A stretch of DNA of 64,000 bases from Leucoraja ocellata (taxonomy: Eukaryota), in contig JAWMAR010000023.1 in the NCBI GenBank assembly GCA_036785375.1, forward strand, positions 5,022,001 to 5,086,000, given 5' to 3'. Made by a program: the position numbers and the translations under genes. Numbering within the stretch: position 1 is the stretch's first letter; every line of letters begins with the position of its first letter. A model generated the notes under the pieces. It was not told the DNA's origin and made no database searches. It saw nothing but the letters and a program-made list of their open reading frames with translations. Below are positions 19,165 through 62,125 of the stretch, piece by piece.

Positions 19165-19597
19165 ATAGGATAAATATTGTTAAGCTTGAAAGGGTTCAGA
19201 AAGGATTTACGAGGATGTTGCCAGGACTAGAGGGTGTGAGCTATAGGCAGAGGTTGAGTAGGCTGGGTCTCTATTCCATGGAGCGCAGGAGGATGAGGGG
19301 TGATCTTATAGAGGTGTACAAAATCATGAGAGAAATAGATTGGGTAGATGCACAGTCTCTTACCCAGAGTAGGGGAATCGAGGACCAGAGGACATAGGTT
19401 CGAGGTGAAGGGGAAAAGATTTAATAGGAATCCAAAGGGTGACTTTTTCACACAAAGGGTAGTGGGTGTATGGAACGAGCTGCCAGAGGAGGTAGATGAG
19501 GCTGGGACTATCCCATTGTTTAAGAAACAGTTAGACAGGTATACGGGTAGGACATGTTTGGAGGGATATGGACCAAGCACAAGCAAGTGGGACTAGT
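19165..19597 (+). mobile_element. CR1 LINE 3' end
   Basis: MLPGLEGVSYRQRLSRLGLYSMERRRMRGDLIEVYKIM and SRTRGHRFEVKG..FFTQRVVGVWNELP. Confidence 0.95.
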
Positions 19598-20090
19598 GTT
19601 GTCAAAGTTTGTTTCTTAAAGCAGATAGCAACAAAAACTGTTTAAGGTAAACCATGGCAATCTTTAATTGATTTGTCAGATGGGAGTGGCAAGATCTACA
19701 GTCAGCACAAATGTTGCTTAGTGCTTCTCGGGCTCCACTCACAGAACAAAGGAAAGTTAGCACAATTATACATTTTTCTTATCAGTAAAACACTCCTACC
19801 AAGTGTGAATATGGCATGGCTGAAAGATTCTGCAGCCTTTCAGAATATAGGAAAGCTGGGTCCAAATCAAGCTCATCCAATAACATGTTATTACTTGTCT
19901 CTGGACGTTAGCTATTTTTTTTTTTAACCTGGTCTTCTTTATAGCCTTGAAAAGAAGCACATGTTATTACGCAGGCTGCCATCTTAATGTCGCCATTGAA
20001 AAGCCAACCTGTCCTCCATATTGTGTTCTTGCCAGTCGTATTGTCACAGATTATTTTGTGACACAGGACAAGAGAGTAAAATATCATAAA

Positions 20091-20294
20091 CACAAAGTGC
20101 TGGAGTAATCCAGTGGGTCAGGCAGCATCTCTGGAGAAAAAGGATAGCTGATGTTTCGGGCCTGGAAAAAGAAGTGTGCCAACCTAAAATGTCACATCCT
20201 TTTTCTCCAGAGATGCTGCCTGACCTGCTGAGTTTCTCCAGCATTTTGTGTCTATCTTTGATATAAACTATCATCTGCAGTTCTTTATTCCTAC
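20091..20294. mobile_element. Inverted pair of PLE tails (imperfect palindrome)
   Basis: cacaaagtgctggag...gatgtttcggg followed by the reverse-complement arm ...ctccagcattttgtgtctatc and an extension ending catctgcagttc. Confidence 0.85.
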
Positions 20295-21639
20295 AAGCAA
20301 AATATCCTGGAGCATTGATGTTCAGGTCTTTTTCAAATGGGTTATTTAGACAGTTGCAGCGGCTGGGGAGTTGGAATAAATGTCAAAGTGTTGTGATGGA
20401 TTGGTGACCCCTTACTTTTTTCATGTATTCATTTATCAATCTTTCCTTGTTCTGTTTTATTTCGTTAAATTATTCTGCCTGCAATATTTGGAGATTTACT
20501 TAAGATGAAGAGAATAGTTTTAAGCCTAGAGTCTGTAGGTGAAAACTGATGACATAACAGGTACTGTATATGAAAAGTTGTCCATGAAAATTACATTGTA
20601 CTGTTCCAATTGAATTTTAATCTCCTGCATCTGAAACTTTCTTTCAAGCCTTCAACATATTTAAGATATTTTATTATATGTGAACGAAAAATATATTAGG
20701 AATTTGAAAGACATGACAAATGACTGCTGACTTTTAGAAACAATAATTTAAAAAAAAATCCGCTTTTCTTTCTTTGAGCTTATTCTTTATTCCCCTTCTA
20801 AATCTAACACTGTTGCAAACGTGGTTTGTTCTGAAGTTTGTGGATTATTGAGTTTCGACTCAAAAATATAGATAAATTGTGCGTTTACAACAAAGTGTAA
20901 AATCAGCTCGGGTGAATTTCTCATAATCATTAAATGAATATTTAATGTTTATATTGGTTTTAGAAAAGTACCTCTTTTGCAGCACAAATTATTTGCATTT
21001 CTTAAGGGAAGTGAGTAATGCATTTGGTTGAAGTACTGCCCAAACTTCCACATAAGTTTGAGTGGTTGAAGCAAGTTCAATTAATCAATATTGAACAGAA
21101 ATTGCAATGTCTGAGCTTAGTTAACTAATCTCTCTGGAATAAGTTTCCGGAGATGACAATTTTGCCTCCAAATGGAAGGGTTGCATGTTTGAGGCTCACA
21201 GCAGAACATCACACGATCTGGGACATCACTTAAATTCTGAGAGATTGCTGCAATGTCAGATAAAGTATTAATCTGAAGTCATGAGGAACTAACATGATTT
21301 TTTTCCATTGCCTTGTCCAGATTTCGTCTCATTGAAAATACATTGTGGTTTGTCATTAACTTATCCCTTGTCGATATTAATGTGCACAAAATTTATTAAT
21401 GTTTGTCTGTTCTTGTGTTCAAAAATTATCTGGTCATGTAATACTTCGAGGCACCTGGGGATGACAAGAGTTATTAATTGTCATACCAAGCAACTGAACC
21501 ATGATATTCTTATTTGCAACAGCATGACAGGTCTGTAAACATTGTACTCATAGATAACATCATAAGAAATAGTTCAATAAGTTTAAAAAATATATATTAG
21601 TGCAAGTAAAGTTCCTAGAGCAACCAAGACGGTTCATAG

Positions 21640-33589: not shown

Positions 33590-34600
33590 TGTGCAGAAAT
33601 GCAAACTTGTAGAGGGTAGAATAAGAAGCAGAATGTTGTTAAATAGTGTAACTATTAAATAGTGTTGGAGAGATCTTGGTGTTCTTCCACAAGAAACACC
33701 AAGTTATGGTGCAAGTACAGTAAGTAATTAGGAAGACAAGTGGGATATGTTTGTCAATATTGCAAGGGGGTGGAATGTGAATGAGAGGAGTTTTTTCTGC
33801 AACTGTTCAGGTGTGATCGTGCCTTGAATATTGTGTTTTGGTTTAGTTTCTTTATTAAAGGAAGGGTATACGGAGGCAGTGTGGGCAAAAAAAAGATCAC
33901 TGTTTGTTCTGGATATGAAAGGTCATCATATGAGGATCAATTAGTAGAATAAACTTGCACTTTGGTTTTAGACAAATAAAAGCTGATCTTATTAAACATA
34001 AAATTCTCAATAGGGTATAGTTAAGTAAAAGGACATGCTCACTTAAATTTGAGATAAAAGGTAGACAAAAATGCTGGAGAAATTCAGCGGGTGAGGCAGC
34101 ATCTATGGAGCGAAGGAAATAGGCAACGTTTCGGGACGAAACGTTGCCTATTTCCTTCGCTCCATAGATGCTACTGCACCCGCTGAGTTTCTCCAGCACT
34201 TTTGTCTACCATCGCTTTAAGGTGTTTTTACACAGAGGGTGGTGAGTCCCGGCGTGGTGGTTAAAGCCGATATGATAGTAGTATTTAAGAGATACAGGCA
34301 TATGAATATGCAATGAATGGAAGGATATGGATTATGTACAGGCAGTTAAGCGTTGGCTTTGGCATCAAGTGCAGAACAGACACAGTGGGTCGATGGGCCT
34401 GTTCCACTATGTAGTAGAAATGGAGGCTGAGTCACGAGTGTATTAAGGGATGGAAGATTTTTAGACTTTAGGAGACTTGAAGATTATCGGGACCAGGCAG
34501 AAGAATGTAGCTGAGACCAGGGACAAATCAATCATGGTCTTCTTGAATGTTAAAGCAACCTCTTGAGTCCTGATGGTTTACTCCTGCTTCTGTTGCTCAC
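33590..34600 (+). mobile_element. Cluster of decayed CR1 fragments
   Basis: gatcttggtgttc, ccttgaatattgtg..ttttgg and ttttacacagagggtggtgag...gggcctgttcc motifs flanking the palindrome. Confidence 0.65.
34060..34210. mobile_element. PLE-tail palindrome (74-bp arms, 3-nt loop)
   Basis: ggtagacaaaa...caacgtttcg-gga-cgaaacgttg...ttttgtctacc. Confidence 0.95.
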
Positions 34601-34857: not shown

Positions 34858-34952
34858 GCCAGAAAATGCTGTAGTAACTCAGCGAGTCAGAAGATGACTC
34901 TGGAGAAAATAGATTGGTGACGTTTTGGGTCAGGACAACTTCTTCAGACTGA
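34858..34952 (-). mobile_element. PLE tail with degenerate hammerhead
   Basis: Reverse strand reads cagtctgaagaagttgtcctgacccaaaacgtcacc followed by the tail. Confidence 0.75.
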
Positions 34953-42039: not shown

Positions 42040-42300
42040 CCCCCCCCCCATTGTAATGAGGGTTTACTGTACTGCTTCGTGTTACAAACAGCTAACAATG
42101 CCCTATTCCCTTTATCATCGTAACTTTTTTGCATATCTTTTATTCTTTGTTCTTTATCTCTCCAATTCATCATCTTCATCTCTCGTTTCCATTATCCCTA
42201 ACCAGTCCGAAGAAGGGTCTCGACCTGAAACGTCACCCATTCCTTCTCTCCAGAGATGCTGCCTGTCCCGCTGAGTTACTCCAGCATTTTGTGTCTATCT
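42040..42300 (+). mobile_element. PLE 3' UTR, hammerhead variant and tail
   Basis: ccgaagaagggtctcgacctgaaacgtc at 42207-42234, followed by the tail. Confidence 0.85.
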
Positions 42301-42420
42301 TTAGTGTTAGGTTTGCTTTGTTTCTAGCCTCTACAGTAACATTATGTTATTTGACCCTGCTAACACTGATCCCTTTGTCCTATCACCCAATCTGGCCTCA
42401 CACCAATCATCAGGTATTTT

Positions 42421-42605
42421 GAAGAACGGACTGCAGATGTTGGTTTGAATCGAAGGTAGACACAAAATGCTGGAGTAACTCAGCGGGACAGGCAGCATCT
42501 CTGGAGAGAAGGAATGGGTGACATTTCGGGTCCGAAACGTCACCCATTCCTTCTCTCCAGAGTTGCTGCCTGTCCCGCTGAGTTACTCCAGCATTTTGTG
42601 TCTAC
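42421..42605. mobile_element. PLE-tail palindrome (core 42456-42605) with one-sided extension
   Basis: gtagacacaaaa...tttcgg-gt-ccgaaa...ttttgtgtctac. Confidence 0.95.
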
Positions 42606-43104
42606 ATCAGATATGTTGAGGTCAACTAAACTGGGAAAGTGAAAGGTCTGAAGTTAGTATCCTTCTGGTCTATATGTTTCACTATGTCGTCATGCTGGTG
42701 GCGTATGAACCACTCAGCCGTTAAGTGGTTCTGGAATTGTATACCTATCATTGCACATAATATTTGCATTCATGAGCAAGTTGCATTAATAGCCATACTT
42801 CAGTCTTGTATTATTGATGTAATTTTCAGCCATAATATTAAGTACTTGTCATCAATTCCAGCGCTGTTCTATTGAAGATACAGCGGTAGAAATATATATT
42901 ACTCAAACCCGTGCATTTTCTACAATCTTACAAATGAAAATTGAGTGATTAATTTCAGTGTTAAAGAAGCTGTATTGCCTTGCAACTGTTAACATTTTGC
43001 ATGTATCCTCTTGTGAAAACTGTAGCAAGTACATTGAAATTGCATACCACAAACTTTTAAATTGCACAGCTGTAACTGAGGTGCCCAGTAAACTTGATAA
43101 ACAG

Positions 43105-43700
43105 TAGACATAATGAACTGCAGGTGCTGGTTTACAAAAGAGACAGTGCTGGAGTAACTCAGCAGCATCCCTGGAGAACGTGGATAGGTGATGTTTCAGA
43201 TCAAGGTCATTCTTCAGACTAAATATGGTCGGGGGGGGGGGGGGGTGGGGGGAGAATGCTGGAAGAGGTGGGAACTGGATAAAGCCTGGCAAGTAATAGG
43301 TGGAAGGTAGACAAAAATGCTGGAGGAATTCAGACTGAAGAAGGGTTTCAGCCCGAAACGTTGCCTATTTCCTTCGCTCCATAGATGCTGCCGCACCCGA
43401 TGAGTTTCTCCAGCATTTTTGTCTACCTTCGATTTTCCAACATCTGCAGTTCCTTCTTGAACAAGTAAGGAGGGTTTTGATTGGCAGATGGATAGGAGAG
43501 GCACAGTTTGTTAAATCCTTCCTCTGGCATAACAGTTTGTGCCTCTTATTTCCTTTTCTGACATTTATTTTTACATCTTTGACCTTTGTCCAAACATCTC
43601 CTATCCATGTTCTGCAGAAATGCTGCCTGACCCGCTGACGTACTACAGCACTTTGTGTTCTTTTGTGTATTCACAGCATCTGCAGTTCTTTGTTTCTGCA
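43105..43700. mobile_element. Nested PLE ends: older inverted pair with a younger hammerhead-bearing insertion (about 43305-43462)
   Basis: Older minus tail from 43105 and older plus tail at about 43590-43700; the inner copy has ctgaagaagggtttcagcccgaaacgtt at 43335-43362. Confidence 0.8.
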
Positions 43701-44099
43701 AGACACACAGTATCTGGATAAGACACACAGTTGCATAAGAACCGATCAAGTGCAACATTAGTCCACGAAACAGAGTCTAATTGAAATTCTTTTCTTGGAG
43801 AATAAACTTCAACTAATGTTTTCCATTTACTAGATGATGTGCAGGACCCATTTAAAACAAAATCTGTATGATTTTGATTGCATGGAAATATGGATGATTG
43901 CAGTGTGCTTGGTAATGAATGAATGATACTGGGTAATGTGCTGTATACCCACCCACACCAACCCACCTGCTCGCAGAAAAGTATGGTGAATGTGACGGGG
44001 CACCAAAGAGGAGGGGAAAATAAGAGAACGAGGTAATTTATGAGGAAAGGAATTCATTGCTGGAGTGCTAGTATGGATGTTGTGGGCTGAAGGGACTGG

Positions 44100-45155
44100 T
44101 TTCCAGAGAGTTAGTATGGACATTGTGGGACAAATGGATTCTTGGGCTGGCGGCTCTGTCGCTCAAGCCTGTTGTGCTGGCAGCTCACTCACTCACGGCT
44201 GGTGGGCTGGCAGTTGACTCACGGCTATTCCTTGAAATTCCATTTCAAGCAGGGTGCAAGGCCACCAAATTCAAGTGCGGTTTCTTACCACTTCAAGCAG
44301 GGTGCAAGGCCACCAAATTCAAGTGCAGTTTCATACTATTTCAACCAGGGTGCAAGGCCACTAAAGACATTGAGTCTTGATCTCTCCCTCCTCCATCTTC
44401 CAGAGTCCGACCCATGCCGACACTTCTGGGTTTTACAGTTCCTCCTCCCCCCTCCTACCAGAAGGGGCATGGCCTTCATGGCGTGATTGACAGAAGGGAG
44501 AATCTCAACATTTTTTAAACACTAATAACTCTTTTATTTTTCATCGATGGGAAAATTCCTCTGCACCTGATGAGTGGAGGGAGACTCTCAGTTGATGGTC
44601 AAAAATCACAGCCGTACGTGGTAGCGTTGTTTCTAAAATCAATATAAAGCGCAAACAGGAAGTGGTCAAGATTAGACTTTTAATTATTTAGAAGGCAAGG
44701 CAACTTTAATTAGGCAAGGCAACTTTAATTAGGCAACACATCTTTAGCATTTCCAAACCAAAGGCAACACAGCTTTAGCATTTCCAAACTATATTTTCAA
44801 ACCACATTAAGGGCACCAACAGGTCAGTAAAACCACTCACAGTTTAGTAGACATGTGTTCAGTGTTACTCACACTCAGTCTGAGAGACGTGACCCTCTCG
44901 CTTCCCCCCATCTTGCAGAGACTAACTGAGGCACTCAACACTACTGGGTTTTATAGTCCCTCCGGAAGGGATGTGGCCTTCAGGAGAGAGAATCTCAACA
45001 TTTTTTAAACTCTAATAGCTTTTTTATTTTTTATCAATGGAAAAAATCCTCTTGTCCTGCGCAACAGAGGGGGAATCTGAGTAAGATGGCCAAAAATGAC
45101 AGCCCTAAGTGGCAGTTTTTTTTTTAATCAATATACAGAACAGGAAGTGGTCAAC
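44100..45155. repeat. Composite non-coding element with internal tandem repeats and a long diverged direct repeat
   Basis: 48-bp unit x2.5 (44244-44365), 19-bp x2 (44693-44730), 31-bp x2 (44731-44789); 44376-44670 is similar to 44889-45154. Confidence 0.8.
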
Positions 45156-46981
45156 TAAACTAAATTCAAGGTTAGTAGCTTCAACAGTAGTGCCATGCTA
45201 TTTACTGCAATACAATCTGCGAGCAGCCTATATATTTTATGTGTCATGGGAATAGTGCTTGAATCCAGAATCTATTTACACGATGCATAAGATAGTGTAT
45301 TTCGCAAAGATCATAGGGAAAGACTGACTTACTGTGAGATTGATGTATTCGATAATGGTCTTTTTGTGAGTTAATGGATGATGTTGATAATTTTGTCCGC
45401 GGAATTTGGGACAGGGATATTTGTGGGTTATTATACAAGTTGTTATTATGAGATTTTTGTGTTTTAATTCATAGCATTTTAGATTTACATTTAAATAACC
45501 TTTCCAACTTGTCTTTTAAAAAGATACCTTTGAAAGAAAATGTCATCCTTTCAATTGAGCAACAGTACTTAAAATATTTCACTATAGTAATCAGTGGATG
45601 GGTTGAAGTATTTGCACAGATAAAAGAGAGAGTGGCGAATTAGTGGGGGTATAAACTGCTTTTATTTTTAGAAAATCTGTTTTTTGCAGAATTGAATGAC
45701 ATGTCAGCGTTGTCTGTGCAATTAATTAAGTGATATAGATCACTGAAAGAAAATATTTTGACAGCAAATTACTTAAACATTCAAATAAAGTTCTGTCAAT
45801 TATCTTTCCACTTTATTGATTTAATTTTTTTTTTAAAAGTGACCCTACCACCCCCTCATGGTGGAAACCATGCTGTGTCTTGGATCTTGTCTGAATTGCC
45901 CTGCGTTTATGTGAGTTGTACATTTTGTGGTATTTTCATTCCAAGCCTTTTAAGGCACCAATTTGATTCAATAAAAGGAGCATCTGAGTGACAATGTACA
46001 TTTATAATTGGTTTGCTCTCCTTGGCACTCTTTTTTTTCTTGTTTGTTTTTATTTTTTATTTTTTGGATTCGTTTTCAAGATCAAAATTTAGTGTCTGAG
46101 TCTAGCAAATGTATTTAATGATATATATGGAATATTACGCAATCAAAGGAACTTGGCATTGCATGTGGTGCACTTTGTTCCACAATTCCTGTGCTTGTTC
46201 TCCGAAGGATCTATCTTCTGAGTCCAATTCCATAACTGAAAGCTATTTACATTTTCTGTTTACAAAACAAGTATAAATTTCTCCTTGTGTTGGAATAACT
46301 GTTACATATTCAAAATCCTCTTAACTGTCCCTATTGGAGATAATTTTAAACTCACGCCCTTGGGTAACCAAACCCCATGTCAGATGAATTTTAAATTATC
46401 AAAAGCTCTCAATCAAATTCCCTTTTTATTTGGATATAAAAAGATGTGGTGGATGTTGGTCTCTGCTACTTCTGTAGAAAGCTCGAGTTTGTCATCCCCA
46501 ACAATTTCTGTCACTCTCTTCTGCATCAAGTCCTACTGAGCGGAGAGACGATTGAAGAAATAACACCTCCAACCAAATCAACCAGTGGCACAAGGGCTCC
46601 TTCACCATCATTTGAAAGTATTCCTATTCTTGGGTGCTGTGCTTCAGCTTATTTTTGCAATATTAATTGACATATTGCTCATCCATGTACTCCATTGGTT
46701 TTTGTTATACTTTCCCATTGAACAGGAAGGCATGATTGTGTAAATTCAGATCAATGATGCATTGACAGCTGCTACACACAGTTTAAATCTGTAGACCTTT
46801 GACAAAATAATCTGAATAGTGGCCAAATCAGTCCAGGATCTCAGTAAAGATATCTGATAGGGTGTGACACCTCCCTAACTAATTGGATTCCAACTGGATT
46901 TGACTAGTGCGGGTTAGATGAGGGTACTATTCATGGCACCCTTAAGACTGCTTACCAGTGGTAAGGGTTGGATTATTGCAG

Positions 46982-47061
46982 CTAGAACAAAAATGCTGGA
47001 GAAACTGGACGAGGTGGGAACTGGATAAAGCCTGGCAAGTAATAGGTGGAAGGTAGACCCA
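46982..47061 (-). mobile_element. 80-bp chimeric insertion with 11-bp TSD
   Basis: gattattgcag at 46971-46981 and 47062-47072; the insert is about 20 nt of PLE tail plus an exact copy of 43265-43312. Confidence 0.85.
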
Positions 47062-47369
47062 GATTATTGCAGTGCCTTCATGTTCAGATGGCGCCTAATA
47101 ATCCAGGAATAGCAGACCATGAAGGCTTTCAGTTTAATCTGGAGCAATTGTGTTCTCCCTGGCACCACTACTAGGCAAGTATTTCTTCCAACAAAACTGA
47201 ATTTATTTGGGTTCCCCGGTCCCTTTAAAAATGATTCCTCGGGTACGGAATACCTGAAGAAATTGATGTTGGAGTTTGGGAAGAATCGTGTTTTGTGATG
47301 GTTCTACAGCAAGTCGGTGAGTCCATAGCTGGAAATTTGTGCAGAGTTATGATTCCCTGATCTAAAACA

Positions 47370-47845
47370 ATATAGATTAATCAGGATAATTCCAGAGAGA
47401 GCGATGTCCTAATGAGGGAGGCTAGTCATTAGGGCTTGTATTCCTTCAAGTTTAGAAGAATGTGGGACGACCTTATTCAAACATAAGATGTTAAGTGAGT
47501 TGACAGGGTAGATATGGATATGTTTCCACTCCTATTGTTTGTGTCTCACTATGATGTAACTACAAAATAAGAAGTGGATTATTTAAAACTAAGGTGTATC
47601 ATAGTGTCTTTGCCTTGGGTAATAAATCACTGGAATTCTCTGCCTCTAACCTAGGTGGAGGCCAGACAGTCATCTATATTCAAGGCGGAGATAGATGAAT
47701 TTTTGAAAGATTGAGGAACTGAAAATTAGAGGAACTGGCAGAGAAGACAATTTGTGGTCAGTGTAGATCAGCTGTGATCATATTAAATGGCATGGCAAGC
47801 TTGAGAGGCAGCGTGGCCTACTCTCCCGATTTTCTTGTGTTCTAA
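47370..47845 (+). mobile_element. Decayed CR1 3' end
   Basis: gggcttgtattccttcaagtttagaagaatg..gaccttattcaaaca..ctggaattctctgcc..gtggcctactc. Confidence 0.75.
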
Positions 47846-48944
47846 GCAAGCGACTGGATCCTAACTCCTGAAGAAATTCGCTGGTAATAGTCTTTCAGCC
47901 ATAAGAAAATTTGTAGCTTCCTTTCACTGAACAAGTTTGGGATTTAATTTGCTATCCACCCTTGGATTTTCTTGGTGCTTCTACCTTTTTGACTTGCTTG
48001 TATGTGTGACCTTGTCATAAGCTTCACTAAACTACATCAAGCACATATCAACCCTCCTTGTTACCTCCACAAAGAATTTGATTAAGCTAGACAGATGTAG
48101 CCTTCCCTTAACATGTACTTAATGATTGTCCATGATTAATCAGTGTCTTTGTAATGAAGTTTACACAGTCCCTTCCAATGGATTCCAATAATGTGTTCCA
48201 CCATTGAAGTTGCCTGTAATTCTGTATCTTATTGATTCCTCCCTTTTTCAACAAAGGTACAAGATTTGCAATTCTCCGGTCCTCTTGCACTACTCCTGGG
48301 TCTTAATAGGATTGGAAAATTGGAGTCAAAGCTTTCTCCTTTACATTTTAACAGCCTGTGATATATTTCATCTGACTCCTATGGTTTATCCATTTTCAGA
48401 ATAATAAACTCCTTCATACTTCCTTGTTTAAACTACATTGAACACATCAGATAATCAGACTCGTTTGCCTTAAGTACAATTTTGGGCATCATCGCCCTCT
48501 TGTAAAGACATTGACAATATGTTCTCTGAGAGCCTTGCCCATGTTCTTTGCCTCCACTCACGGGTCATCTTTCTCAGTTAATTCTTATTTCTTTTCACTC
48601 TTTATGTACATTTTTTTAAATCCTGCTCACCAATATTATTTCATATTCCCATCTTTACTTTCGTACCCTACCTTTTTAATTTTACTCCCACATTATTCCA
48701 ACTTTCTGATGCATTAAATTCCCATTGCCTGACAATAGCTCTGCATCTTGTCATCCAAGCTGTCTAAATTTGACAGTCCCATCTATCTCTTTGGAGAAAG
48801 ATGGTCACCCTGAATATCTTGAATCTTGTCCTTTAGAGTCCCCCATTGCTTTGGAGTCATTTATCTTCAATCAGCTATTTCTAGTCCACTTTTGCTAAAT
48901 AGTTTCCTTATCTAGCGATTTGATCCAGGTCCTCCTTGTTCATG

Positions 48945-49044
48945 GTTAGAGTCTGAAGAAGGGTCTCGACCCGAAACGTCATCCATTCCTTCTCTCCAGA
49001 GATGTTGCCTGTCTCGCTGAGTTACTCCAGCATTTTGTCGTCTC
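48945..49044 (+). mobile_element. 100-bp PLE 3' end with 15-bp TSD
   Basis: tcctccttgttcatg at 48930-48944 and 49045-49059. Confidence 0.92.
48953..48980 (+). ncRNA. Minimal type I hammerhead ribozyme motif (PLE-associated)
   Basis: CTGAAGA-A-GGGTC(TC)GACCC-GAAA-CGTC: conserved core boxes, stem II, palindromic ACGT stem III and GUC cleavage triplet. Activity not shown. Confidence 0.75.
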
Positions 49045-51559
49045 TCCTCCTTGTTCATGCTGTTTAGGTCCTTCATAGTGTTATACTTCCTAATTAAATC
49101 TCCAGTGATCCAAAGAAACAACCTCAATCTCTCCAATCTTTCCTCTCATCTAAAATGTTTCCATTTCAGCAACACCCACTGTTTAATCTAGAACTGTGTG
49201 AAATACTTGCCGAGCTCCTCTTGTATATACAGTTCAACCATATTCACCTTGCTTTTTAGTTGATGTCTCAATTGATAAAGAAAAGCATCCGATTTACCTT
49301 TCTAATCATCATATTAACATGTCTAGCTGCCGTGAGGATATCTGGACACACACTAGGGTCATTCTGATCCTCCAAGGGTCTTGGTTTACTTCAATATATT
49401 GTGAATTACTTTGCCTTGCTGCGATATATGTCACATTTAGAAAAGTGCAAAGGGTGCCATACAAATGTTTACGGTCTTGTAAGAGACATTTCCTTTCATA
49501 AATATATAGATAATCCCCACCAACCATCCAAATATCAAAGCTGGAAAATCAGCGTTTAGATATAGATTTAATTTATTTCTTGGAAGAGGGCATTTTTTAT
49601 GACGTGAAATTTGTGTTCTTCCAGCTGATATTTATTCCTCCAGCAGATGAGAAGCAACGGGAGTCATTTAATTTTCATGCCACCCAATTTATTTCTTAGT
49701 CTTGTTGCTAGAACTGTCAAAAGCCCACTTTATTTTAAGACAATTTGCTTATCGGGAGAGAGGGAGAAAGAGTGTTGTCGTGAAACAAATTAACTCCCGT
49801 TCAACAAAATGGCTCAGTTCTGCAAAACACACCTAACAAATGCAAAATTGCGTTTTATTAACTCTTCTTCAGTGTGTTTTACAATGGGTGTCATAACGAG
49901 TCACTGCGAAACAGATTATCTGAAATTATAGGTTCTATTTAATAGGATCACTGTTTTATATGCCTGCTAAGATAAGTGGTTACGATTGAGGATTTCCCAG
50001 CTCAATGTTTTCTACGATCTCTTATTATCTGAGCAAAGTGCCCTTTTATTTACTCTGTTGTAATTGGCCAATGTGACATCAAATGGAAAAAAGCACAACT
50101 AACATCATTGGGGAAGTCCGTTGGTATTGAAGTCACTGAGGATATTTACTGACATAAAAGCCCACTGTTGACCTGAAACAGGCTGTGGATTGTGTGATCA
50201 ACTTACCTTTGTTGCCTCGCACAACAATAATGTGATAGATGCGTATTCACTTATTATATATTGCATATTCCCTTATCATAGTTATATTGTGAGGGAATGT
50301 TGGAAGAGTTCCAAAGAGCATAAGTGGACAAGTGGGGTTACTGAGGAAGTAGGGGGTGAATAACAAGACAGATTTAGGGAGCAGGATCAGACAACAAAAT
50401 GTTTAAGTGAAGAAAACTGAAATTTGGTAGCTAATTATCAAGAGAGTTTGGCAATGAGATAATGTACAGAAAGTAATGAGAGAGATTACAGCCACAACGT
50501 ATTGGAGTAATTGGAGTTTGTGATGTCTGAAGTAAACACCAGCAAACTATTAATGAGGTTTTGCCACACGGATCAAAGCTTTAGTAAATGGGGTAATGTT
50601 ATGAAGGAACAAAAATGATGTTTTAGTAAACAATAAATATGGTTTATCATATGACTGTGTATTCAATTTCAGCATTTTAAACACAGGTTTTCTCAAATGT
50701 TGCTAATATTATTGAATAGGATATGTTTGTGATATATCCAAACTAATTATTTATTTTGAGATTAATGTTCTTTTTGTGTGTTGATCTCCATTTTAATATT
50801 GTGCCAAATGCTGTCAAGAGTAAAACTGTATTAGAACAAGAAAAAAAAGCAAGACTTAGTATGCTAACAATTCCGGTGTGAAATCAAAGTTTTCATTTTA
50901 TTCCTGGAAGGGCACCCTTATCTAAGAATACCTGTACAAATTGCAGGAAATGTGATGCATGCATGAAAATCACTTGTTGATAGAACATGTTTTCTACAAA
51001 CATATTATTAAGGACGAGTGCTTATTGTGGTGCCAAAAGAAAGGATTCTGCATAGAGTATGAACAAAACAAGGGAAGATGTTGAGAAATACGAGTGTTTA
51101 TGTAAATTAATTTTGCATTTAGAGAAGACTGCAATTTAATAAATGCCCTTTATGGTTTTTAAATTGAATAAGGTACAGTATACTTGATAAATAATGAGAC
51201 CAATTAGAATTTTAGCTCTAATTAAAAAATGTAAAAATGTTTGACTTTTAGATTCAACATTATTTAAAGAGACGCAGGTATACATTTTGGATAAAAAATA
51301 CATATTTTTATATGTGTTGTGATCTCCAACTTTCATGTTTGTAGAGGGATAAAAAAGGAATCAATTGGGTCCCTAAAAGGGGATTTGAATGGGCACGAGG
51401 AAGAATAATTTGCCTTTGGGGAAAAATTGGGTAATAAGAATGGAATATTGCTCTGCAGGGAGCCACCATAGACTCAATTGCCTAAATGACACTCAAATTA
51501 GCACTTTGCCAAAAACAGAAGAGGAAACAAACAAACAAATGGACTAAAGAAATATCTAA

Positions 51560-52320
51560 GATAGACACATAATGCTGGAGTAACTCAGCGGGAAAGGCAA
51601 CATCTCTGGAGAGAAGGAATGGGTGATGTTTCGGGTCGAGACACTTCTTCAGACTGATGCCGGGGAGTGGGTGATACAGAGATAAAACGTAGTCGGAGAC
51701 AGTAAGACTGGTGAGAGAACTGGGGAGGGGATGGAGAGAGAGGGAAAGCAAGGGCTACTTGAAGTTAGAGAAGTCAATGTTCATACTGCTGGGGTATGAG
51801 CTGCCCAAGCGAAATTTGTGGTGCTGTTTCACCAATTTGCGCTGGCCCTCTCTCTGACAATGGAGGCGACCCAGGACAGAAAGGTCAACGTGGGAATGGG
51901 AGGGGGAGTTAAAATATTGAGCAACCGGGAGATCAGGTAGGTTTTGGCAGACTGGGTAGAAGTCTTCAGCGAAACGATCGCTGAGCCTGCGCTTGGTCTC
52001 GCCGATATATAGGAGTCCACACCTGGAACAGCGGATACAGTAGATGAGGTTGGAGGAGGTGCAAGTGAACCTCGGCTTCACCTGAAAAGACTGTTGGGGC
52101 CCTTGGACGTAGTGGGGGGGGGGGGGAGGTAAAGGGACATGTGTTGCATCTCCTGTGTTTGCAGGGGATGGTATCTGGGGAGGGGGTGGTTTGGGTGGGA
52201 AGGGACGAATTTACCAGGATGTTGCGGAGGGAATGGTCTATACGGAAAGGGGTAGAGATGGGAAGATGTGGCTTGTGGGGGGGGGGGGGGGGGGGGATCC
52301 TGTTGGAGGTGGCGAATAAA
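51560..52320 (-). mobile_element. Neptune-type Penelope-like element 3' fragment (Zn-finger linker, GIY-YIG endonuclease, UTR, hammerhead, tail)
   Basis: PCKHRRCNTC, then FTCTSSNLIYCIRCSRCGLLYIGETKRRLSDRFAE..PVAQYFN..FRLGS..MNIDFS; hammerhead variant at 51625-51652. Confidence 0.93.
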
Positions 52321-53527
52321 AAAAAATCTAGATGGTCACCTTCACTGTAACCCATCTGTATTGTGTTGCTCTACATCTTGAATATGTCGAGAACTGAATT
52401 TGAGTTGTTTTAGTCCTAAGAAACAATTTTTTTAAAAGGTCTACTTAACAATGTTCTCGTTACACTTCCAAATGAATATCTGTGAGAGTTTACTATTATC
52501 ATTGACTTTTAGTCGTAAATTCTAAAATATTCCTCTTTCTACTATTTTTAAGACTTTCAGATTTTGTTTCTTAAGGTTTATAGTTTTGAGTTTCTGGTTG
52601 TGTGCAACCTTTGGAGATGATCCCTTTCATGATAAGATCTTGGTTTCAACACCGTGTACATATTCAATTTGCGCATCTAAACTGGAGCAACAAAGGGGGC
52701 ACAACAATCATGATCGACTTTTCCAAATCGGGAACAAAATATAATTTCTGGTTACCTTGTTGGCTTGGACATGAAGATGGGATTTTGAGAGGCTGTGCAA
52801 ATATTGAAAATCTTACTTGTACCGGTTTAACAGGCCTGTAAACACAATACACATAGATAATATAAACAAAACATTGATAATATAAACAAAAAATCGATTT
52901 ATTAATAATCCCAATACCACTGGCCTTCATTAAGGAGTTGGAAAAAAGGGTGATGCCTGAGAAATTGGATCTCAGCAAGAAGAGTGTTATAATGGCAATG
53001 GATTAAAGTCCATCCGGCTCGATGTAAAGCATCCTTATGACCCCATCCCTTTGTATCTCACTCTATGAATGCAAGAAGGTAATCTCAATTGTGAAAAGTT
53101 TGTTTTCAATGAATAACAAATAGCTAGTGGGACAAGATTCTAAACCCTATGCATATTCTCAAACAAGTCTGGCTCAGAAAATATTAAAATGTATTCAGTG
53201 CTGTGATCCTGAGCTGGAAAAAATGATTCTTTTTGCATAAAGCTATAAAATGGAATGCACTTTTGTTGTTTTAATCACCCTACAAGGAATTGCCCACAGA
53301 ACAATAGCATTATTGTTACATAAGCAAACACAGCAAACAATTCATCCACATCAAGGTGTCATAAACATAGAATGGTTGCTTGGTTGAGAAAGAAATATCG
53401 CTGTACAGAAAGTGCTTTTATATCTTTTTGCACAGACAAATAAACATGGCAATTGTTCACAGTTTATTAAAAATACAGTATCCTTAAGTATTTACTTTTT
53501 GGCCAAGAACATGACGTACTCTCATGG

Positions 53528-53690
53528 TAATAAAAACAGAAAATGCTGAAACTGCTCAGCATGTCAGTCCACATCAACGGAGGTTCACATCAGTCCACAC
53601 TAGTCCTCTTCCCACAAATGTGGCCTGACCTCCTGAGTATTTCCAGCATTTTCTGTTTTATTTCAGTCTTTCAGCATCTGCAGTTTTTTT
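53528..53690. mobile_element. Older PLE-tail inverted repeat
   Basis: aataaaaacagaaaatgctg ... cagcattttctgttttatt with a decayed centre. Confidence 0.7.
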
Positions 53691-54481
53691 TTTTAATGAT
53701 TTCCAATGACTTTCATTTTCCCTTTTTTTCCATTTGTCAGAAAGGACCAAAGATTTCCAAGCAATATGCGATGTGTCTATTGAATGGTGAGACAGACAAA
53801 GGAATTTCTTACTATTTATAGTGTGACAAATCCTATGAAATGTTTTTGCCATTTTTTCCGCGACCTCTCTTTCTGAGTCTGCAGCAACTATCAGTGGTTA
53901 AAATAAATAATACAAACATCTTCCACTGTTTAGAATTGGACGGAAACAGGTTATCCCAGGCCCTGCGGAACTATCTAAAAATAAGTGGAGGATTTTAATT
54001 AAATATTGTATACTCTTTGTTAAAAAGTAATGCGCTTGGATGGTTGTCACTAATTGCTCTTATGTTGTTGGTCAATAATTGGTAGATCAAAACTGGAATG
54101 TGTTTGCAGTGTCGGTTTAGTGTAGTGCTCGGGCGAGAGTTTAAACAACAATAATCGATATTTCTCTTTACTGTCTTTATTGATGATAATTTAAATATTG
54201 AAGATTAAATATTGACTACATTCAGTCATTTTGTCCCCCTCAATATTTCCCCCCCTCCCATTTCTTGTTTCCTATCATCCTCCTTCCCTTTCTTCAAAGC
54301 ACCAGTGCAATCTAGCTGGCTGTCAGCCTCCCTCAGCTGAATATTGATTTGAACTTGAAAATCTTCATTGACCTGCAGTCAGTTGATACCACACATCCAA
54401 ATTGGTCATGGGGCAGGGACTGTAATCAGAACTGAATTACCCCAATCATACTCTATCTCCAGTTTGCGATATGTATAAAAT

Positions 54482-54583
54482 GTATAGTTGAAGAAGGGTC
54501 TCGACCCGAAATGTCACCCATTCCTTCTCTCCAGAGATGCTGCCTGTCCCACTGAGTTAATCCAGCATTTTGTGTCTACCGTC
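54482..54583 (+). mobile_element. 102-bp PLE 3' end with 12-bp TSD
   Basis: tgaagaagggtctcgacccgaaatgtc plus tail; tatgtataaaat at 54470-54481 and 54584-54595. Confidence 0.9.
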
Positions 54584-54643
54584 TATGTATAAAATTGGTA
54601 CACTATCAATATCTTTTATTACAGAGTTGTGCAATTATGAAAT

Positions 54644-54868
54644 GGTGGTGAATCAGTAGAATTTTTTGCCGCAGAAAGCTCTGGAGTCCTCGTCCATGGA
54701 TATTTTTAAGGCAGAGATAGATAAATTCTTGATTAGCACGGGTGTCAGGCGTAATGGGGAGAAGGCAAAAGAGTGGATTTAGGTGGGAGAGATAGATCAG
54801 CCATGATCGAATGGCAGAGTGGACCTGATGGGCCGAATGGCCTAATTCTACTCCAATTACTTATGACC
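54644..54868 (+). mobile_element. CR1 3' end with 9-bp TSD
   Basis: gtggtgaatc..gggccgaatggcctaattct; ttatgaaat at 54635-54643 and 54869-54877. Confidence 0.85.
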
Positions 54869-55759
54869 TTATGAAATTGTTTCAGAGTGAGAGTATTGAG
54901 CATGTTATTTTGAAGAAGGAAAGAAGGGGAGGGAATCCACATTTACTAAAGATTGAGGACACGGACTTTCCAAGAAAAGGATTTGTAGTATGTTGGTTCA
55001 GGCTGATGAATTAATGGGAAATTTGGAAGCTTAAGGTAGATGGATCAAAGTCTGCTCCTACTGTAACCAAAACATTGTTATAGAAGTGTGGATGAGTAGT
55101 TATGACAACGTTGATGACATGCATACAGTTAGAAGTAAAGTGATTGGACACCTTGGTCTTTTTTCAACTCCTGCGCTCAGCAGTCAGGACTGTTTTTTGA
55201 AATGGCGAGTGGAAATCTAATATATTATTGCAGTTAAAATCATCTGCATAAATCCTCCTAGCCAGCTGGTTAATGATTTTTATTTTTAACAGGCTCGGCT
55301 GAGAATAATTTGGAGGGTTTTATTAGCAGGCTGCTACACATAACTGAAAAACCAATTAGTGAACTTACAAATAAACTGGGTTCCCCTGGAGGATGCTGGA
55401 ATTTAAGACTGACTTTAGCTTCTGGATATGTATCTGAACCACTGAAGATTGCTACTTAGGCTGGCCTGTGCACCACTACCATGCTTAGTTATTGCTAATT
55501 GTCAAAGACTGCAAACAGTTATTTGCATAACTTCCAATCCCCACTTTTATTCCTTTTGTAATATAAACAGAGCAGTTAGAAATAAAGAGCGTTTTAAGTT
55601 GCAGAGAACAAAGGGGATTTCAGGAGAGGGTGAATGACACAAGCAGAGGTGATGCTGGATGAGTTTGGGTGCTGAAGCCTTATTCATCTCAGTTAATCTG
55701 TTTGCAAATAGAAAGAGTCAAATAAGAGCAGAACATCTAAATTTGTGATGTATAAAACA

Positions 55760-56900
55760 CTGCAGCTGATGGAAACGTAAAGTGAAAGAGGATGTTGGAA
55801 AATACTTAGCAGATCAGGTCAGAGTGAGAAAAACACAGTAAATGATACAGAGTAAATGAAACGTAAAAGGCCAAAGATTGGAGCGTAAATAGGATGGAGA
55901 AATAAATGGACAAGCTTGGAGATCACAAGACTGAATGGAGGCAGATCGGTTTCCCAGTCTGCATTTGGCTTCTCCATGTTACAGGAAAACCCTCAGTACT
56001 GAGCACACTCCTTGAAACTGGAAGTGTAGGAGAATCTGGATCCCTTGATAGTGGGAATGGAGAAGATGAAAGGGCAATTGTTGCATCTCTCGTGGTTGCA
56101 TGGGAAGGTACAGTTAGAACATAGACAAAAGTGCTGGAGAAACTCAGCGGGTGCAGCAGCATCTATGGAGTGAAGGAAATAGGCAACGTTTCGGGCCAAA
56201 ACCCTTCTTCAGACAAGGTACAGTTAGAAGTGGATTGAGGGTGAGGGGGAGAGTGAACCAGGAAGTTGTCAAGGGACTGTGCATTTTGCATTTTGCAAGG
56301 GGAGGAAAGAGGAGTCTGATGGTGGCAGCTCTTGAAGTTGGTGTAAACTACAGAATGTGATCTGCTAAGTGCAAAGGCTGGTAGATGAGCGGGTGAGAGC
56401 AAAAGTATATGAAATAGAACAGCCACGGTTGAGAGCCTGTCACTGAGGGGAGATGGGAAACGGCAGTGACGGAAAATGGAAAGCATCTTGTAAATGCTGA
56501 AGTTGAAGGGTTCATAACCTGAAAAAAGAAGAGGAACTGGGAGAATCAAATGTAGTTGTTACGGCAGGATTGTGTGAGGTATCCGTGGTCAAGTTAACTG
56601 TGGAGTCTGTGGCTTGGAATGGATGTTGGTCGCTATCCCTATCTCCTGTGATGGTGATCCAGCACTCAAGGCAGGAGTAAATAGAAGTCCGAGATGTACT
56701 GTTTGAAATTAAGAGCAGGATGGAAGTTAGCAGCAAAAATAAAATTCAGTTTGTATTTCAGGTTTCCAGCTTTCGTGTTATTTTTACATTGCATGATTTC
56801 ATGTGGGCAGCCAGGATCAAATATCGATTTCAGAAGAGGGGTTTCACAGGTCAAGGGCTAATTGCAGCAGGTTTTGTTGATGTAATTTAGTCCCCATTTC
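55760..56900 (-). mobile_element. Old Neptune-type PLE remnant
   Basis: SLDNFLVHS..CTFPCNHERCNNCPF linker and finger, homologous to 51966..52355; decayed RT region upstream. Confidence 0.7.
56120..56214 (-). mobile_element. 95-bp PLE 3' end with 15-bp TSD
   Basis: Hammerhead ctgaagaagggttttggcccgaaacgtt (56212-56185); aaggtacagttagaa at 56105-56119 and 56215-56229. Confidence 0.92.
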
Positions 56901-56949
56901 GAATGTTTCCATTTTCGCTTTTGACATTACTATTTGTCACATGTGGTTC

Positions 56950-57050
56950 ATCTGTAGCTCAGTTGGTAACAGTCATTGGCGAATCAAACAATGTGGCTTC
57001 AAGTTCCATTTAAGAGAAATTTAAGCTGACACTCCAATACAGTGCAGAGG
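56950..57050 (+). mobile_element. Decayed tRNA-derived SINE head (DeuSINE-like)
   Basis: A-box-like gtagctcagttgg (56954), B-box-like ggcttcaagttcc (56995), then gctgacactcc. Confidence 0.5.
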
Positions 57051-57550
57051 TTTACTCGTGATAAATGTAGAATAGAGAGATATTTCTAGCCAACCTGATT
57101 ATCCTTCGTAGGTGTTGCAAGAAAGTGAATATTAACCTATTATTTTGTTTCTCTATATGCTTCCCAGAGCTTTAAAACCAGATGCCTCTGCATCCAACCC
57201 AATTGATTTAACACAGCAGTAGTTGAACTTGTTAACCACTGGCTTGTTAACTACTATTCTTCTATAACTTGACATAAATTAAACCAATGGCTAAAATAAC
57301 ACAAGTAAAACAACATTTTGCATTGAAATAACGTGATCCTGAGGATTAGCTGTTGGACTGTCAAGAACAGTCCATAAAAAGGCCTTCATGTTCTGTTATC
57401 TCGTGGCCACATCTGAAGCAAAGTAGTGAGAACTGAGAGCCTCAGAACAGCTATTCCAGAACATCGATACAGGTTTTGCTGTTGGTAAATGCTCCATTGT
57501 CCCTTCTTTACATTGGGATTGCAAAAGAAGTTGAAGGCAAAAGTTTGTTG

Positions 57551-57682
57551 AGGGAAAGAACTGCAGATGCTGGTTTAAATCGAAGGTAGACACAAAAATT
57601 CTCGTGTAACTCCACTGGGTCTGGCAGCATCTCTGCAGAGAAGGAATGGGTGACGTTTTGGGTCGAGACCCTTCTTCAGACA
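57551..57682 (-). mobile_element. PLE 3' end with mutated hammerhead and tail extension
   Basis: Reverse strand reads gtctgaagaagggtctcgacccaaaacgtcacc...ttcgatttaaaccagcatctgcagttc. Confidence 0.88.
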
Positions 57683-60059
57683 CTTGTATTTGTTTATCCA
57701 TTCAAGTAACTGGTGAATTGCTAAGGTGTATTGTTGAACCTGTATGATTGGCTTTGTGCGGATGTATGTGATGGGTATTTTATTTAGTTAGCATTACTGT
57801 TTGAGCTTTAACAAAAACAAATTAACGATCAAATCATTGTTGGAGAGGTATACAATGAACTTTTCAGAGATTTAAAAAAAAAATCACCCGTCCATTGCTT
57901 CAGATTTGAAAGCTTCTACTGAATCTATTGCCATCAACCATGATGATACGTAATCACACTGCTTTCAAAGTAATACGTTGAGGAAACATGAAAATATGTC
58001 ACATTGACATGGTTTCTTTCCCGACCATTGTTAAAATACTCACTCTTGCTGAGGTTCAATCCTTGAGACCATCTGCCCTTTGGTATGTTGTTGAAATGGC
58101 AATTGTTAATGTGAGCACAGGGAAAATCATTTTTTTTAAGATAGTCTCAAAGTATAATCTTGAAAAATTTTCAATTTTTTTTTTTTTTTTTTTAAATTTG
58201 CTGCCTCTCACATGGCGATCTATGTCACTTGGACCTTTTCTTTAACCTCCTTTAACTCGGTTGTTGTTTTCCAGATTTCTGGTCTTTACGCCTCCGATCC
58301 CGGCGTTTTGCATGTTTTGAATATGTGTTGTTCCACTATTGATAGTTATTGCTTCAGATGCATTGGGGCTAAGGTCTGAAATTCTCTCCATAAACTCAGA
58401 CCCTTTTCCCCTCCTTTTCAAAATGAACTACTGTGATTGAGCTTTTCCCTTGATTGACATGGTCAAACTTTGGTTTTCAAAGTTCCCACAAAGCACCTCG
58501 AGATGTTTTTACTAAGTTTACTAAAGGTGCTCTTTCAAGCAACTTCTTGGCTTTAGGTGATGCCATATTAGATTTTTAAATTGTGAAATAAACATTGAGT
58601 AGACAGGAATTTTCCAATGACTTGATTTTACCTTGTCACAACTGAAGTACAAATAATCGAGAGATTTGACCTTAGGTTATTCTTGCTTCTGCTCTTACTG
58701 TTGTCCAGCTCTTCCTGAGAGCTATCGAGCTGTGTTATCTGCTGATTTACAGTCTGCTAAATTGTGTACTCAGAAGGTTGGCACCTATCCCCATTTCAGT
58801 TTTTGTTAAAACGAGTATATCTATATACTTGTTCACATTGAGGAACCGATCATTATTTGTATAAACTACTTGTGTCAAGCAGCTCCTAGCTGTGCACTGT
58901 GGGAATCTTTGTTTATGCAGTTTACTAATCATTCCATGCAAGTTTCAAGAGTTTCAAATAAAAAAAATTGTTAACTGGTAACATTTCCTTTTAGCTATTT
59001 AAATATTTTAATGTGTAAATACTTTTAGAACATTGCAGAGCAGATTCAGGATTTTTAGTGGGTTGCATTGGGTACCAAGACCATGGGGGGGGGGGGGGGG
59101 GGAGGGGGGAAGGGGAGGTGTTTGCATTTTTTGTTTTCTTGAGTTTGCGTTTAGTTAATTGACTTGCGTATCGAGGTGCAGTGAAAAGCTTTTGCTGCAT
59201 GCTGACCAGTCAATGGAAAGACAATGCATAATTACAAACGAGCCATCCACAGTGTACAGATACATGATGAAGGGAATAGCGTGAATGACTGGGAAGTTCT
59301 TGACACTTGCTCACTTGTACAAAGCCTTGGTTTATATTTTTGGGTTCCAGTGCTTGCTTGTTTTGTATATTGAACATATCTGTTCAAGAAGTCCACATTT
59401 AAACTAGTTGCATGTATGTACTTCAGCCCAGCAAGATATGTTTGGATAGCAATCAATGCAATGGAATTAGTTTAAACTTTTGCAGAGAAAAAATCAATTG
59501 AATTGTTGAATATATATATTTGATCCAGATGAATGTTTGCAGTTGGTGGTGTTTTACACACATCTGAGAATCAGTTTATATGATAATGATTAAGTAACAA
59601 AACAACTTGCAACTTTTACAAAAAATGTAACATTTGCTACAAAAATGAATATACTGTTTTTGATTTTATTATGTTTTCATTAAAAGAAATAACAATGTAG
59701 TCAGTGATAATGATCAGATGAGTTTTTCAAGTATTAATAGATTTCAGAAGATCAAATCACAGCTACATTTATTTTTACACATGCCTGTTGTTTGTAATTT
59801 CCAATTGGTAATTTAAAAAGCCTTTAAACCTGTGTGTTAAAGTGCTCCGTGTCTAATAAAGCATGAAATAGACTTCCACTGTAGGTACCTTCTAGTTAAA
59901 AATTGATTCTTAATTGCTATAGGGATTGTGGGAAATAGTACACAACTAAAAATTTAAGTTTGAAACAATGCAATTATTTTTCAGTTGGAGTATCCATGAT
60001 TCATTGATTAAGGCATTTCCATCATTTGTTAATTGTTATCAGAAAACACCCTCTATTTA

Positions 60060-60341
60060 TCTTTGCAGCACCGGAAATTGGAGGAACAGCACCTCATATT
60101 CCGTTTGGGGAGTCTGCATCCTGGGGGCATGAACATCGAATTCTCCCAATTTTGTTAGTCCTTGCTGTCTCCTCCCCTTCCTCAGTCCCCCTGCTGTCTC
60201 CTCCCATCCTTTCTTGTCCCCGCCCACCCCCGCCCCCTAAAGCCATCAGTCTGAAGAAGGGTTTCGGCCCGAAACGTTGCCTATTTCCTTCGCTCCATAG
60301 ATGCTGCTGCACCCGCTGAGTTTCTCCAGCTTTTTTGTGTA
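60060..60341 (+). mobile_element. 5'-truncated PLE (GIY-YIG C-terminus, UTR, hammerhead, tail) with 12-bp TSD
   Basis: 60066-60158 encodes QHRKLEEQHLIFRLGSLHPGGMNIEFSQFC*; hammerhead at 60251-60278; accctctattta at 60048-60059 and 60342-60353. Confidence 0.93.
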
Positions 60342-60609
60342 ACCCTCTATTTACTGATGGATGCAGAATTGATTGATGGTGCCTTTGAGACCATTATTTT
60401 TTAAAAGTGTGATAAATAAATTTAATTTACATAGCCAGGAGGGTGCCTTTGTGAATCCCTCAGAAGTTGAAGCCTTTTAATGCAACGTCATCCTCATAAA
60501 TTTCACATGACTTTAGGTTCTCCTTTCAGATTGTCAATGGAGTTTAAGAAACAATGATGAAAAAGTGTAATAACGAGGAAACAATGATATCCAAATGGCT
60601 ACCCGGTTA

Positions 60610-60800
60610 AAACACTTTTTGTGGTGGAGGAATTCAGGAGGAGAGGCAGCATCTGTGGAGGGAATGGACAGACAACATTTGCCGTCAGCGCTCTTCCTCT
60701 GACTGCTCCATTCCTTTTACAAATGCTGTCGGACCCGTTGAGCCCCTCCAGTTCTTCGTTTTGCTCAGGTTTCCAGCATCCGCAATTCCTTGTTTCTCCC
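60610..60800. mobile_element. Older PLE-tail inverted pair
   Basis: ggcagcatctgtggagggaatgga ... tccattccttttacaaatgctg ... ccagcatccgca. Confidence 0.65.
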
Positions 60801-60977
60801 TTTAATGCAGATGATCTTGTTATGTAGGTGCAACTGAATCTTGAGTGCTTTAGTTTTTTTTTTTGGCTCGTTGTTCATGTTGGGTTCGGTATAATTTAAC
60901 AGATTGTTTCAAGGGATCTCGATGGATCATAGGATTTCCAGGAGGTTGGTGTGAAAGATTGAATGCTTTAATTTATA

Positions 60978-61159
60978 AGAAAGGACTGCAGATGCTGGAA
61001 AAATCGAAGGTAGACAAAAATGCTGGTGAAACTCAGCGGGTGAGGCAGCATCTATGGAGCGAAGGAATAGGTGACGTTTCGGGACGAAACGTCACCTATT
61101 CCTTCGCTCCATAGATGCTGCCTCACCCGCTGAGTTTCTCCAGCATTTTTGTCTACCTT
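60978..61159. mobile_element. PLE-tail palindrome (core 61007-61159; 75-bp arms, 1 mismatch, GGA loop)
   Basis: Direct comparison of the two arms. Confidence 0.96.
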
Positions 61160-61299
61160 ATGGTTTTTTTATAGTGCTTTCTATATTCCAGGCACTCTAT
61201 ACTTTCTTTTCCAGCATAACCACAGCTGGAATGTAGGATACCTGTATCTTGCACACAGCAAGCGCCAACTAATAGCCTTTTACGTGGGTAGATGAATCC

Positions 61300-61680: not shown

Positions 61681-61938
61681 TTTAAACTTGGAGAAGAATA
61701 TACTGGTGTAATCTGGTATTATATCTGCCAAGAATGAACATTTTTAAGAATGGACAAAATTGGCAGAGGAAAAAAAAAAATCTAATATTGTACTGGCATT
61801 ACTACTTGTAAACCATGAAAATAATCCAGTGGCTGGTGAGCTAAATGTTCTTTGTTGTTCCATAGTTTAATTGTAACATACTGCTCAGATAATAATAGCT
61901 GTTACTTTTTTGAATTAACAGAGCTCCAAAAATAAACG

Positions 61939-62125
61939 AAGGCAGACAAAAATGCTGGAGAAACTCAGCGGGTGAGGCAGCACCTATGGAGCGAACAGGC
62001 GACGTTTCGGGTCGAGACCCTTCTTCAGACTGATGTGAGGGTAGGGGAGGGGCAGGATGAAGAAAGGCAGAGGGAGAGACAGTGTGGGAGAGCTGGGAAG
62101 GGCAGGGGAAAGAGGGAGAATAACT
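61939..62125 (-). mobile_element. PLE 3' end with intact hammerhead motif (62028-62001)
   Basis: Reverse strand reads catcagtCTGAAGAagggtctcgacccGAAAcgtcgcc plus tail. Confidence 0.9.

Follow-up and report, generated by a model that had tools for sequence, protein, structure and literature searches.

Minimal hammerhead ribozymes (min-HHRs) are known from the terminal repeats of metazoan Penelope-like elements (PLEs), and those of the fish elements Xena, Poseidon and Neptune, which are mostly dispersed single motifs, were described in 2014 (Cervera and De la Pena 2014, PMC4209133). Other described systems close to the locus presented here are the Anolis Poseidon element PAc (Frangieh et al. 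2024, PMC11167929), the endonuclease-bearing (EN+) PLEs of the Neptune and Nematis clades, for which a CX2-5CxxC linker serves as a marker (Craig et al. 2021, PMC8557442), and the non-LTR retrozymes, which have been reported in the one chondrichthyan sampled (Li et al., bioRxiv 10.64898/2026.07.22.740005). The PLE hammerheads in the literature either show weak cleavage or depend on the protein of the element for it (PMC4209133, PMC11167929). All comparisons below refer to the portions of the cited papers drawn on here; in that portion of PMC4209133, cartilaginous fishes are not named among the hosts of min-HHRs. In the part of the literature on Penelope hammerheads in sharks and Penelope repeats in skate genomes that was covered, we found no study of the family described below.

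We analysed a window of 64,000 nucleotides from Leucoraja ocellata (contig JAWMAR010000023.1), for which an earlier reading of the letters alone (the original prediction) had proposed a dispersed family of min-HHR motifs on Penelope-like 3' ends. The motif is present at all 10 places that it named (Table 1): the core boxes are intact at 43335(+), 48953(+), 56212(-), 60251(+) and 62028(-), they are changed as claimed at 42207 (U4, C11.1), 51652(-) (stem II, palindrome), 54488 (C3, palindrome) and 57679(-) (G12), and the copy near 34948(-) is decayed. The 15-bp duplication on either side of the focal segment means that the predicted coordinates delimit exactly one 100-base insertion. The same insertion is found, identical, in a nearby inverted duplicate of the region, so the duplicate gives no empty site.

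Table 1. Features of the focal insertion and other copies of the family in the window (PLE, Penelope-like element; TSD, target-site duplication)
Feature	Position	Strand	Remarks
Left TSD, 15 bp	48930..48944	+	sequence
Focal insertion, a solo PLE end made up of 5 additional bases, the hammerhead and 64 bases from the element's 5' leader	48945..49044	+	spans uncut cleavage site; matches unit junction of full-length element
Stem I 5' strand, 2 nt	48951..48952	+	
Core box C3-A9 and extra A ahead of stem II	48953..48960	+	
Stem II, 4 bp, CUCG tetraloop, G10.1-C11.1 pair	48961..48972	+	
G12-A15.1 box, then ACGU palindrome at 48976-48979 (stem III, predicted to form between molecules) and C17; cleavage predicted after 48980	48973..48980	+	geometry from PMC4209133
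Stem I 3' strand; pairs in the focal copy are U-A and a G-U wobble	48981..48982	+	
Right TSD, 15 bp	49045..49059	+	sequence
Head-to-head pair of ends (hairpin), junction within hammerhead	20079..20297	.	
Head-to-head pair of ends (hairpin), first box lost	34048..34230	.	
Older decayed end	34860..34952	-	
Subfamily A end, U4 and C11.1 changed	42203..42302	+	
Head-to-head pair of ends (hairpin), first box lost	42416..42614	.	
Subfamily B end with GUU and without stem I, core at 43335	43300..43461	+	left boundary approximate; short inverted piece on 5' side pairs with own tail
PLE 3' end, frameshifted and 5'-truncated: remains of linker and GIY-YIG, stop, 3' UTR, hammerhead with mutations	51543..52350	-	hammerhead at 51652, 105 nt past stop
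Solo end of subfamily A with changes in C3 and palindrome	54489..54593	+	12-bp TSD
Solo subfamily B end, intact core, GUU	56118..56215	-	15-bp TSD
Subfamily A end with 30-40-bp tail, G12 changed	57554..57684	-	
Subfamily B end and 3' UTR, intact core at 60251, GUU	60069..60353	+	
Head-to-head pair of ends (hairpin), first box lost	60971..61175	.	
PLE end and 3' UTR, intact core at 62028, GUC	61931..62117	-	

The focal motif is a minimal type I hammerhead, consisting of CUGAAGA and an extra A, a 4-bp stem II, GAAA, the ACGU palindrome, GUC and a 2-bp stem I. It shares with the min-HHRs of metazoan PLEs (PMC4209133) the type I topology, both boxes (CUGANGA and GAAA around stem II, invariant in five subfamily consensuses), the extra base that separates 9 from 10.1, the G10.1-C11.1 pair, a palindromic 15.2-16.2 (ACGU) followed by an NUH triplet (GUC or GUU), the position inside the terminal repeats (pLTRs) of a PLE and the occurrence mostly as dispersed single copies. 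The original prediction rightly called this resemblance established, and for that reason the finding is not new. The schistosome motifs differ in having a stem I of 4-5 bp, which is typical of min-HHRs; stem I here has 2 bp, as in D. virilis, and stem II has 4 bp (PMC4209133). In this family stem I is kept by one-sided changes only, and its pair probability is about zero. About two base pairs had been predicted for it, and the focal copy has them, but the copy at 43335 has none. We found no longer stem I (at most 2 bp in 47 of 48 strict-descriptor matches). The folding model does not allow a stem II of 5 bp closed by a loop of 2 nt, and 4 bp plus a CUCG or UUCG tetraloop is the better reading; hence, of the stem II variants said to keep pairing through G-U, pairing is indeed kept but only one of the two changes alters a pair. 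The focal copy and the copy at 62028 carry the proposed GUC cut site, but three of the five intact copies carry GUU. GUU cleaves more slowly than GUC.

The family is very abundant. A loose core pattern matches 19 times in the window against 6.06 expected, and none of 100 shuffles reached 19 matches. A strict descriptor (both boxes, stem II of at least 3 bp, a palindromic stem III half and NUH) gave 48 matches in an 864-kb sample as compared with 3, 0, 0, 2 and 1 in five Markov controls, and all but two of the 48 visibly belong to the PLE-end family. By profile search, 27 family pieces were found in the window, 98 in 264 kb and 357 in 864 kb; extrapolated from the 864-kb sample, which was taken from the largest contigs, the genome would hold on the order of a million. 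One degenerate core pattern alone is matched exactly at 75,419 places in the genome of 3.44 Gb (reversed control: 0), in agreement with the very large genomic numbers that had been predicted. The copy number (at least 75,419 exact cores) is higher than the ∼4,000 of coelacanth and 9,000 of Xenopus (PMC4209133). An Rfam scan of the window returned no hammerhead family among eight matches at E up to 5; its best matches were plant miRNA models on hairpins, which score below gathering and which we rejected.

The link to a PLE is visible in the window itself, where one copy of the motif lies 105 nt beyond a GIY-YIG remnant (51543-52350, minus strand). A genome search with a reverse transcriptase (RT) piece led to long open frames, and the parent was traced to C8:5603001-5623000, where head-to-tail units carry three identical hammerheads spaced 3,946 bp; each is 119 nt past a stop, and the first two are 164 nt ahead of the ATG of a 1,221-aa ORF. 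As there is a hammerhead at each junction of tandem units, the 'tail' following the motif is the next unit's 5' leader, and the motif lies in a pseudo-LTR. Pfam matches of the 1,221-aa protein are to RVT_1 (E 1.6e-6) and to GIY-YIG (E 0.013), each of them below its curated cut-off; the protein is a single ORF with an RT containing a YIDD motif and then a C-terminal GIY-YIG, and a C-x4-C-x2-C linker is found at residue 1100 of the open frame, between RT and EN. A PDB search with the RT-EN fragment returned nothing meaningful. Together, the remnant in the window, the tandem parent and the RT and GIY-YIG domains uphold the predicted placement of the motif on PLE ends, and we are highly confident in the identification of both element and motif.

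On its linker motif, the parent is classified as an endonuclease-bearing PLE with a Neptune/Nematis-type linker; Poseidon, our first guess for the clade, was ruled out by the same motif. It resembles the Neptune/Nematis EN+ PLEs (PMC8557442) in having RT followed by a C-terminal GIY-YIG, the CX2-5CxxC linker, partial tandems (here with a 3,946-bp period, forming pLTRs), adjacent inverted 5'-truncated copies and an optional 30-40-bp tail. Tandem units, two internal ends that set the 30-40-bp tail, mainly uncut RNA as insertion template and no RNA ends found at the cut site are features shared with PAc (PMC11167929); however, the ORF here starts 164 nt after C3, whereas that of PAc starts inside stem II, and the C-x4-C-x2-C linker of the protein is absent from Penelope/Poseidon. 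The full-length copies L119-L128 are near-identical to one another, with open frames of up to ∼1,250 codons, and all have GUU and a U-G pair beside the cut; judging from such young copies, the family looks recently active.

The dispersed copies bear marks of insertion. Target-site duplications of at least 10 bp were found in 18 out of 206 solo copies (mean 2.25 and maximum 5 in 20 shuffles), and all 18 of these copies start before the cut. Their 3' ends fall mostly into two ranges, at 92-99 (eight copies) and 128-138 bases (seven copies) after the A of AGT, and the terminal units of full-length elements stop at the same two points. The cut site is spanned by 278 out of the 338 copies that reach well into the leader, and eight begin within 1 nt of it, so the insertion templates were mostly uncut. 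Head-to-head pairs number 70 among the 357 profile matches in 864 kb; the 58 resolved junctions have spacers of 6-88 nt, and the full core is kept on one arm in 18 of them. Such pairs correspond to the arrangement already known from PLEs in which an inverted 5'-truncated copy adjoins another. Sequence common to different lineages begins sharply at (C)AGT, 3-4 nt ahead of C3, and a transcription start there, which is hypothetical, would account for the 2-bp stem I. The two preferred end points probably correspond to the internal reverse-transcription start sites of the anole element. Reverse transcription would stop early, often near the 5' edge of the motif, and the products would be either solo stubs of 100-140 bp flanked by target-site duplications or head-to-head pairs. 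The dispersed copies would then be short stubs left by insertion, with uncut RNA of the element as their likely template, and now decaying.

A few other features of the region were recorded. Hairpins 34080-34189 and 61027-61138 are near-perfect head-to-head stubs (these are hairpins that score below gathering thresholds on plant miRNA models) and, if transcribed, are possible double-stranded RNA substrates. Positions 42262-61219 have an inverted segmental duplicate ∼0.3 Mb away (G000:C23:4740001-4760000), which differs by 264 substitutions per 18,788 aligned bases and one 1,071-bp indel and reaches at least both edges of the compared segment; the duplicate copy of hairpin 42416-42614 is missing 43 apex bases. 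Repeat fragments at 21859-22450, 23801-24259, 32637-33204, 11290-11872, 19151-19599 and 37039-37610 resemble each other, and we take their translations to resemble C-termini of LINE reverse transcriptases.

Selection appears to act differently on masters and copies. 203 copies were clustered on tail columns alone, and the five clusters with at least six copies (197-200 copies) gave the subfamily consensuses, smaller clusters being excluded. Variable columns among the five consensuses number 0 out of 13 in the core, 4 out of 12 in stem II and its loop and 16 out of 55 in the tail (core versus tail, p 0.029). The original prediction had itself proposed this comparison as a test, and the core came out as the more conserved part; as it is invariant across the five consensuses, the master elements likely keep it. 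Stem changes between consensuses preserve pairing, but all are one-sided and no two-sided compensatory change was seen among them; with a stem I of only 2 bp, this makes the structural proof of a ribozyme thin. A small older group (four out of 203 copies in the 864-kb sample) has CTGATGC as first box, with A9 replaced.

In the copies, G12 is changed in 32 out of 102 cases in subfamily A versus 73 out of 303 at other CpG G sites (p 0.15), and in 3 out of 37 versus 20 out of 145 in subfamily B. Genome-wide counts in one fixed 28-nt context are 18,562 for the intact sequence, 5,269 for G12A, 4,328 for C11.1T, 2,700 for loop G to A and 2,598 for loop C to T. The catalytic G12 is thus unprotected in the dispersed copies, being lost by CpG decay more often than the free loop G (5,269 versus 2,700). 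At the C11.1-G12 CpG of subfamily A the inactivating G to A is more frequent than C to T, while the loop CpG is symmetric; this asymmetry may be due to sequence context or weak host selection. Some counts run counter to purely neutral decay: non-CpG core letters differ in 49 out of 1,017 cases versus 376 out of 4,217 for non-polymorphic tail letters in subfamily A, and in 5 out of 366 versus 60 out of 1,614 in subfamily B; the essential A6 is changed half as often as the free N7 genome-wide (657 versus 1,202); and within clusters core A differs less than tail A (5.8% versus 9.9%), but core G, T and CpG are not lower. The lower core divergence among copies probably reflects sub-lineage variation in the masters together with an ascertainment bias of the alignment; constraint at the level of the copies is formally possible too. 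We infer that the core is maintained by selection in master elements only, where cleavage, if any, would likely need the element's own protein.

An unlikely alternative is that even the masters have lost the ribozyme, the motif being retained as an internal promoter/initiator or as a protein-binding site. A stem I of just 2 bp would fit this, as would the sharp start of cross-lineage conservation at (C)AGT so close to C3 and the core mutants of the anole element that insert unimpaired in vitro (PMC11167929); but all catalytic positions are invariant in the five consensuses, including the hypermutable CpG at C11.1-G12, and the stem changes preserve pairing. The GUU and the U-G pair adjoining the cut in the youngest near-identical full-length copies point the same way, yet GUU is an allowed NUH site counted among the active ones (PMC3138052). 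Mostly uncut insertion templates are a further point for a function other than cleavage, except that the anole element inserts uncut RNA too and nevertheless has a working, protein-assisted ribozyme (PMC11167929). The short copies could also be a separate non-autonomous family (SINE- or retrozyme-like) amplified as its own unit, in line with the many solo copies that begin near AGT amid unrelated flanks and with a 21-nt junction length common to six of the 58 resolved hairpins. We regard this as improbable: 5' ends and hairpin junctions are otherwise scattered (6-88 nt), the solo copies follow the subfamilies of the full-length element, and their 3' ends coincide with its ends. The non-LTR retrozymes do have a type I hammerhead related to those of PLE pLTRs, but they form arrays of short non-coding units in tandem, every unit having a hammerhead (bioRxiv 10.64898/2026.07.22.740005), whereas the copies in the window are dispersed solo stubs and head-to-head pairs, with no such arrays among them.

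The original prediction went further and suggested that two same-strand copies within a transcribed intron could dimerise via ACGU and cut the host pre-mRNA unaided. Material for this exists: family sequence is found on both strands in three RNA runs of matching or related species (17,080 of 12.9 M, 28,460 of 8.7 M and 32,268 of 14.9 M records, i.e. 0.13-0.33%), all 13 core and palindrome letters are intact in 24 out of 102 (A) and 23 out of 37 (B) full-span copies, and dimers and trimers of a schistosome min-HHR cleave weakly in vitro (PMC4209133). Folding argues against it, however. The enforced active dimer, with copies tethered by 30 nt, lies 18.2-24.7 kcal/mol above the free ensemble in five out of five pairs (secondary structure only, ignoring tertiary contacts and proteins), and in ten single-strand folds the pair probability is ∼0 for stem I and, in nine of the ten, below 0.2 for stem II. 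In the 864-kb sample a distance of 1.2-59 kb separates intact neighbours on the same strand, G12 is lost at least as fast as other CpG sites, and the anole PLE hammerhead is uncleaved without protein (PMC11167929). The RNA ends predicted at the cut site did not appear: in the three runs there is no pile-up of molecule starts or ends at any place, which is a weak test because the libraries are fragmented. The intron setting is hypothetical as well: no host exon was identified in the frames of the window, and no Pfam match was found in 136 plus-strand and 150 out of 151 minus-strand non-repeat frames (286 out of 287 frames of at least 48 aa); the unique flanks have a depth of 0.5-4 in one of the three RNA runs, in one orientation throughout, too thin to call an intron. 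Unaided cutting of host RNA by dispersed copies is hence very improbable, and these copies are likely inactive. We give just as little credence to a protein-assisted version, in which intact sense stubs in introns would become cut sites wherever the PLE protein is expressed, leading to genome-wide cleavage of pre-mRNA and to host selection that removes intact cores (G12A 5,269 > C11.1T 4,328). As a separate observation, runs X11 and X15 contain hundreds of reads with a ∼66-base tandem repeat (joint 49032 to 48993), which corresponds to the leader from GAAAC without the first core box.

The motif is thus very probably the minimal type I hammerhead of the terminal repeat of a PLE with a Neptune/Nematis-type linker, and its dispersed copies are decaying stubs, likely made from uncut RNA and likely inactive. 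The finding is real but ordinary, and enlarges a known class by one family of very high copy number; it would gain importance only through proof that host RNA is cut by dispersed copies. As it stands, the family provides a natural dataset on the purpose of PLE hammerheads, one that separates constraint on master elements from the decay of copies and shows that the templates are mostly uncut.
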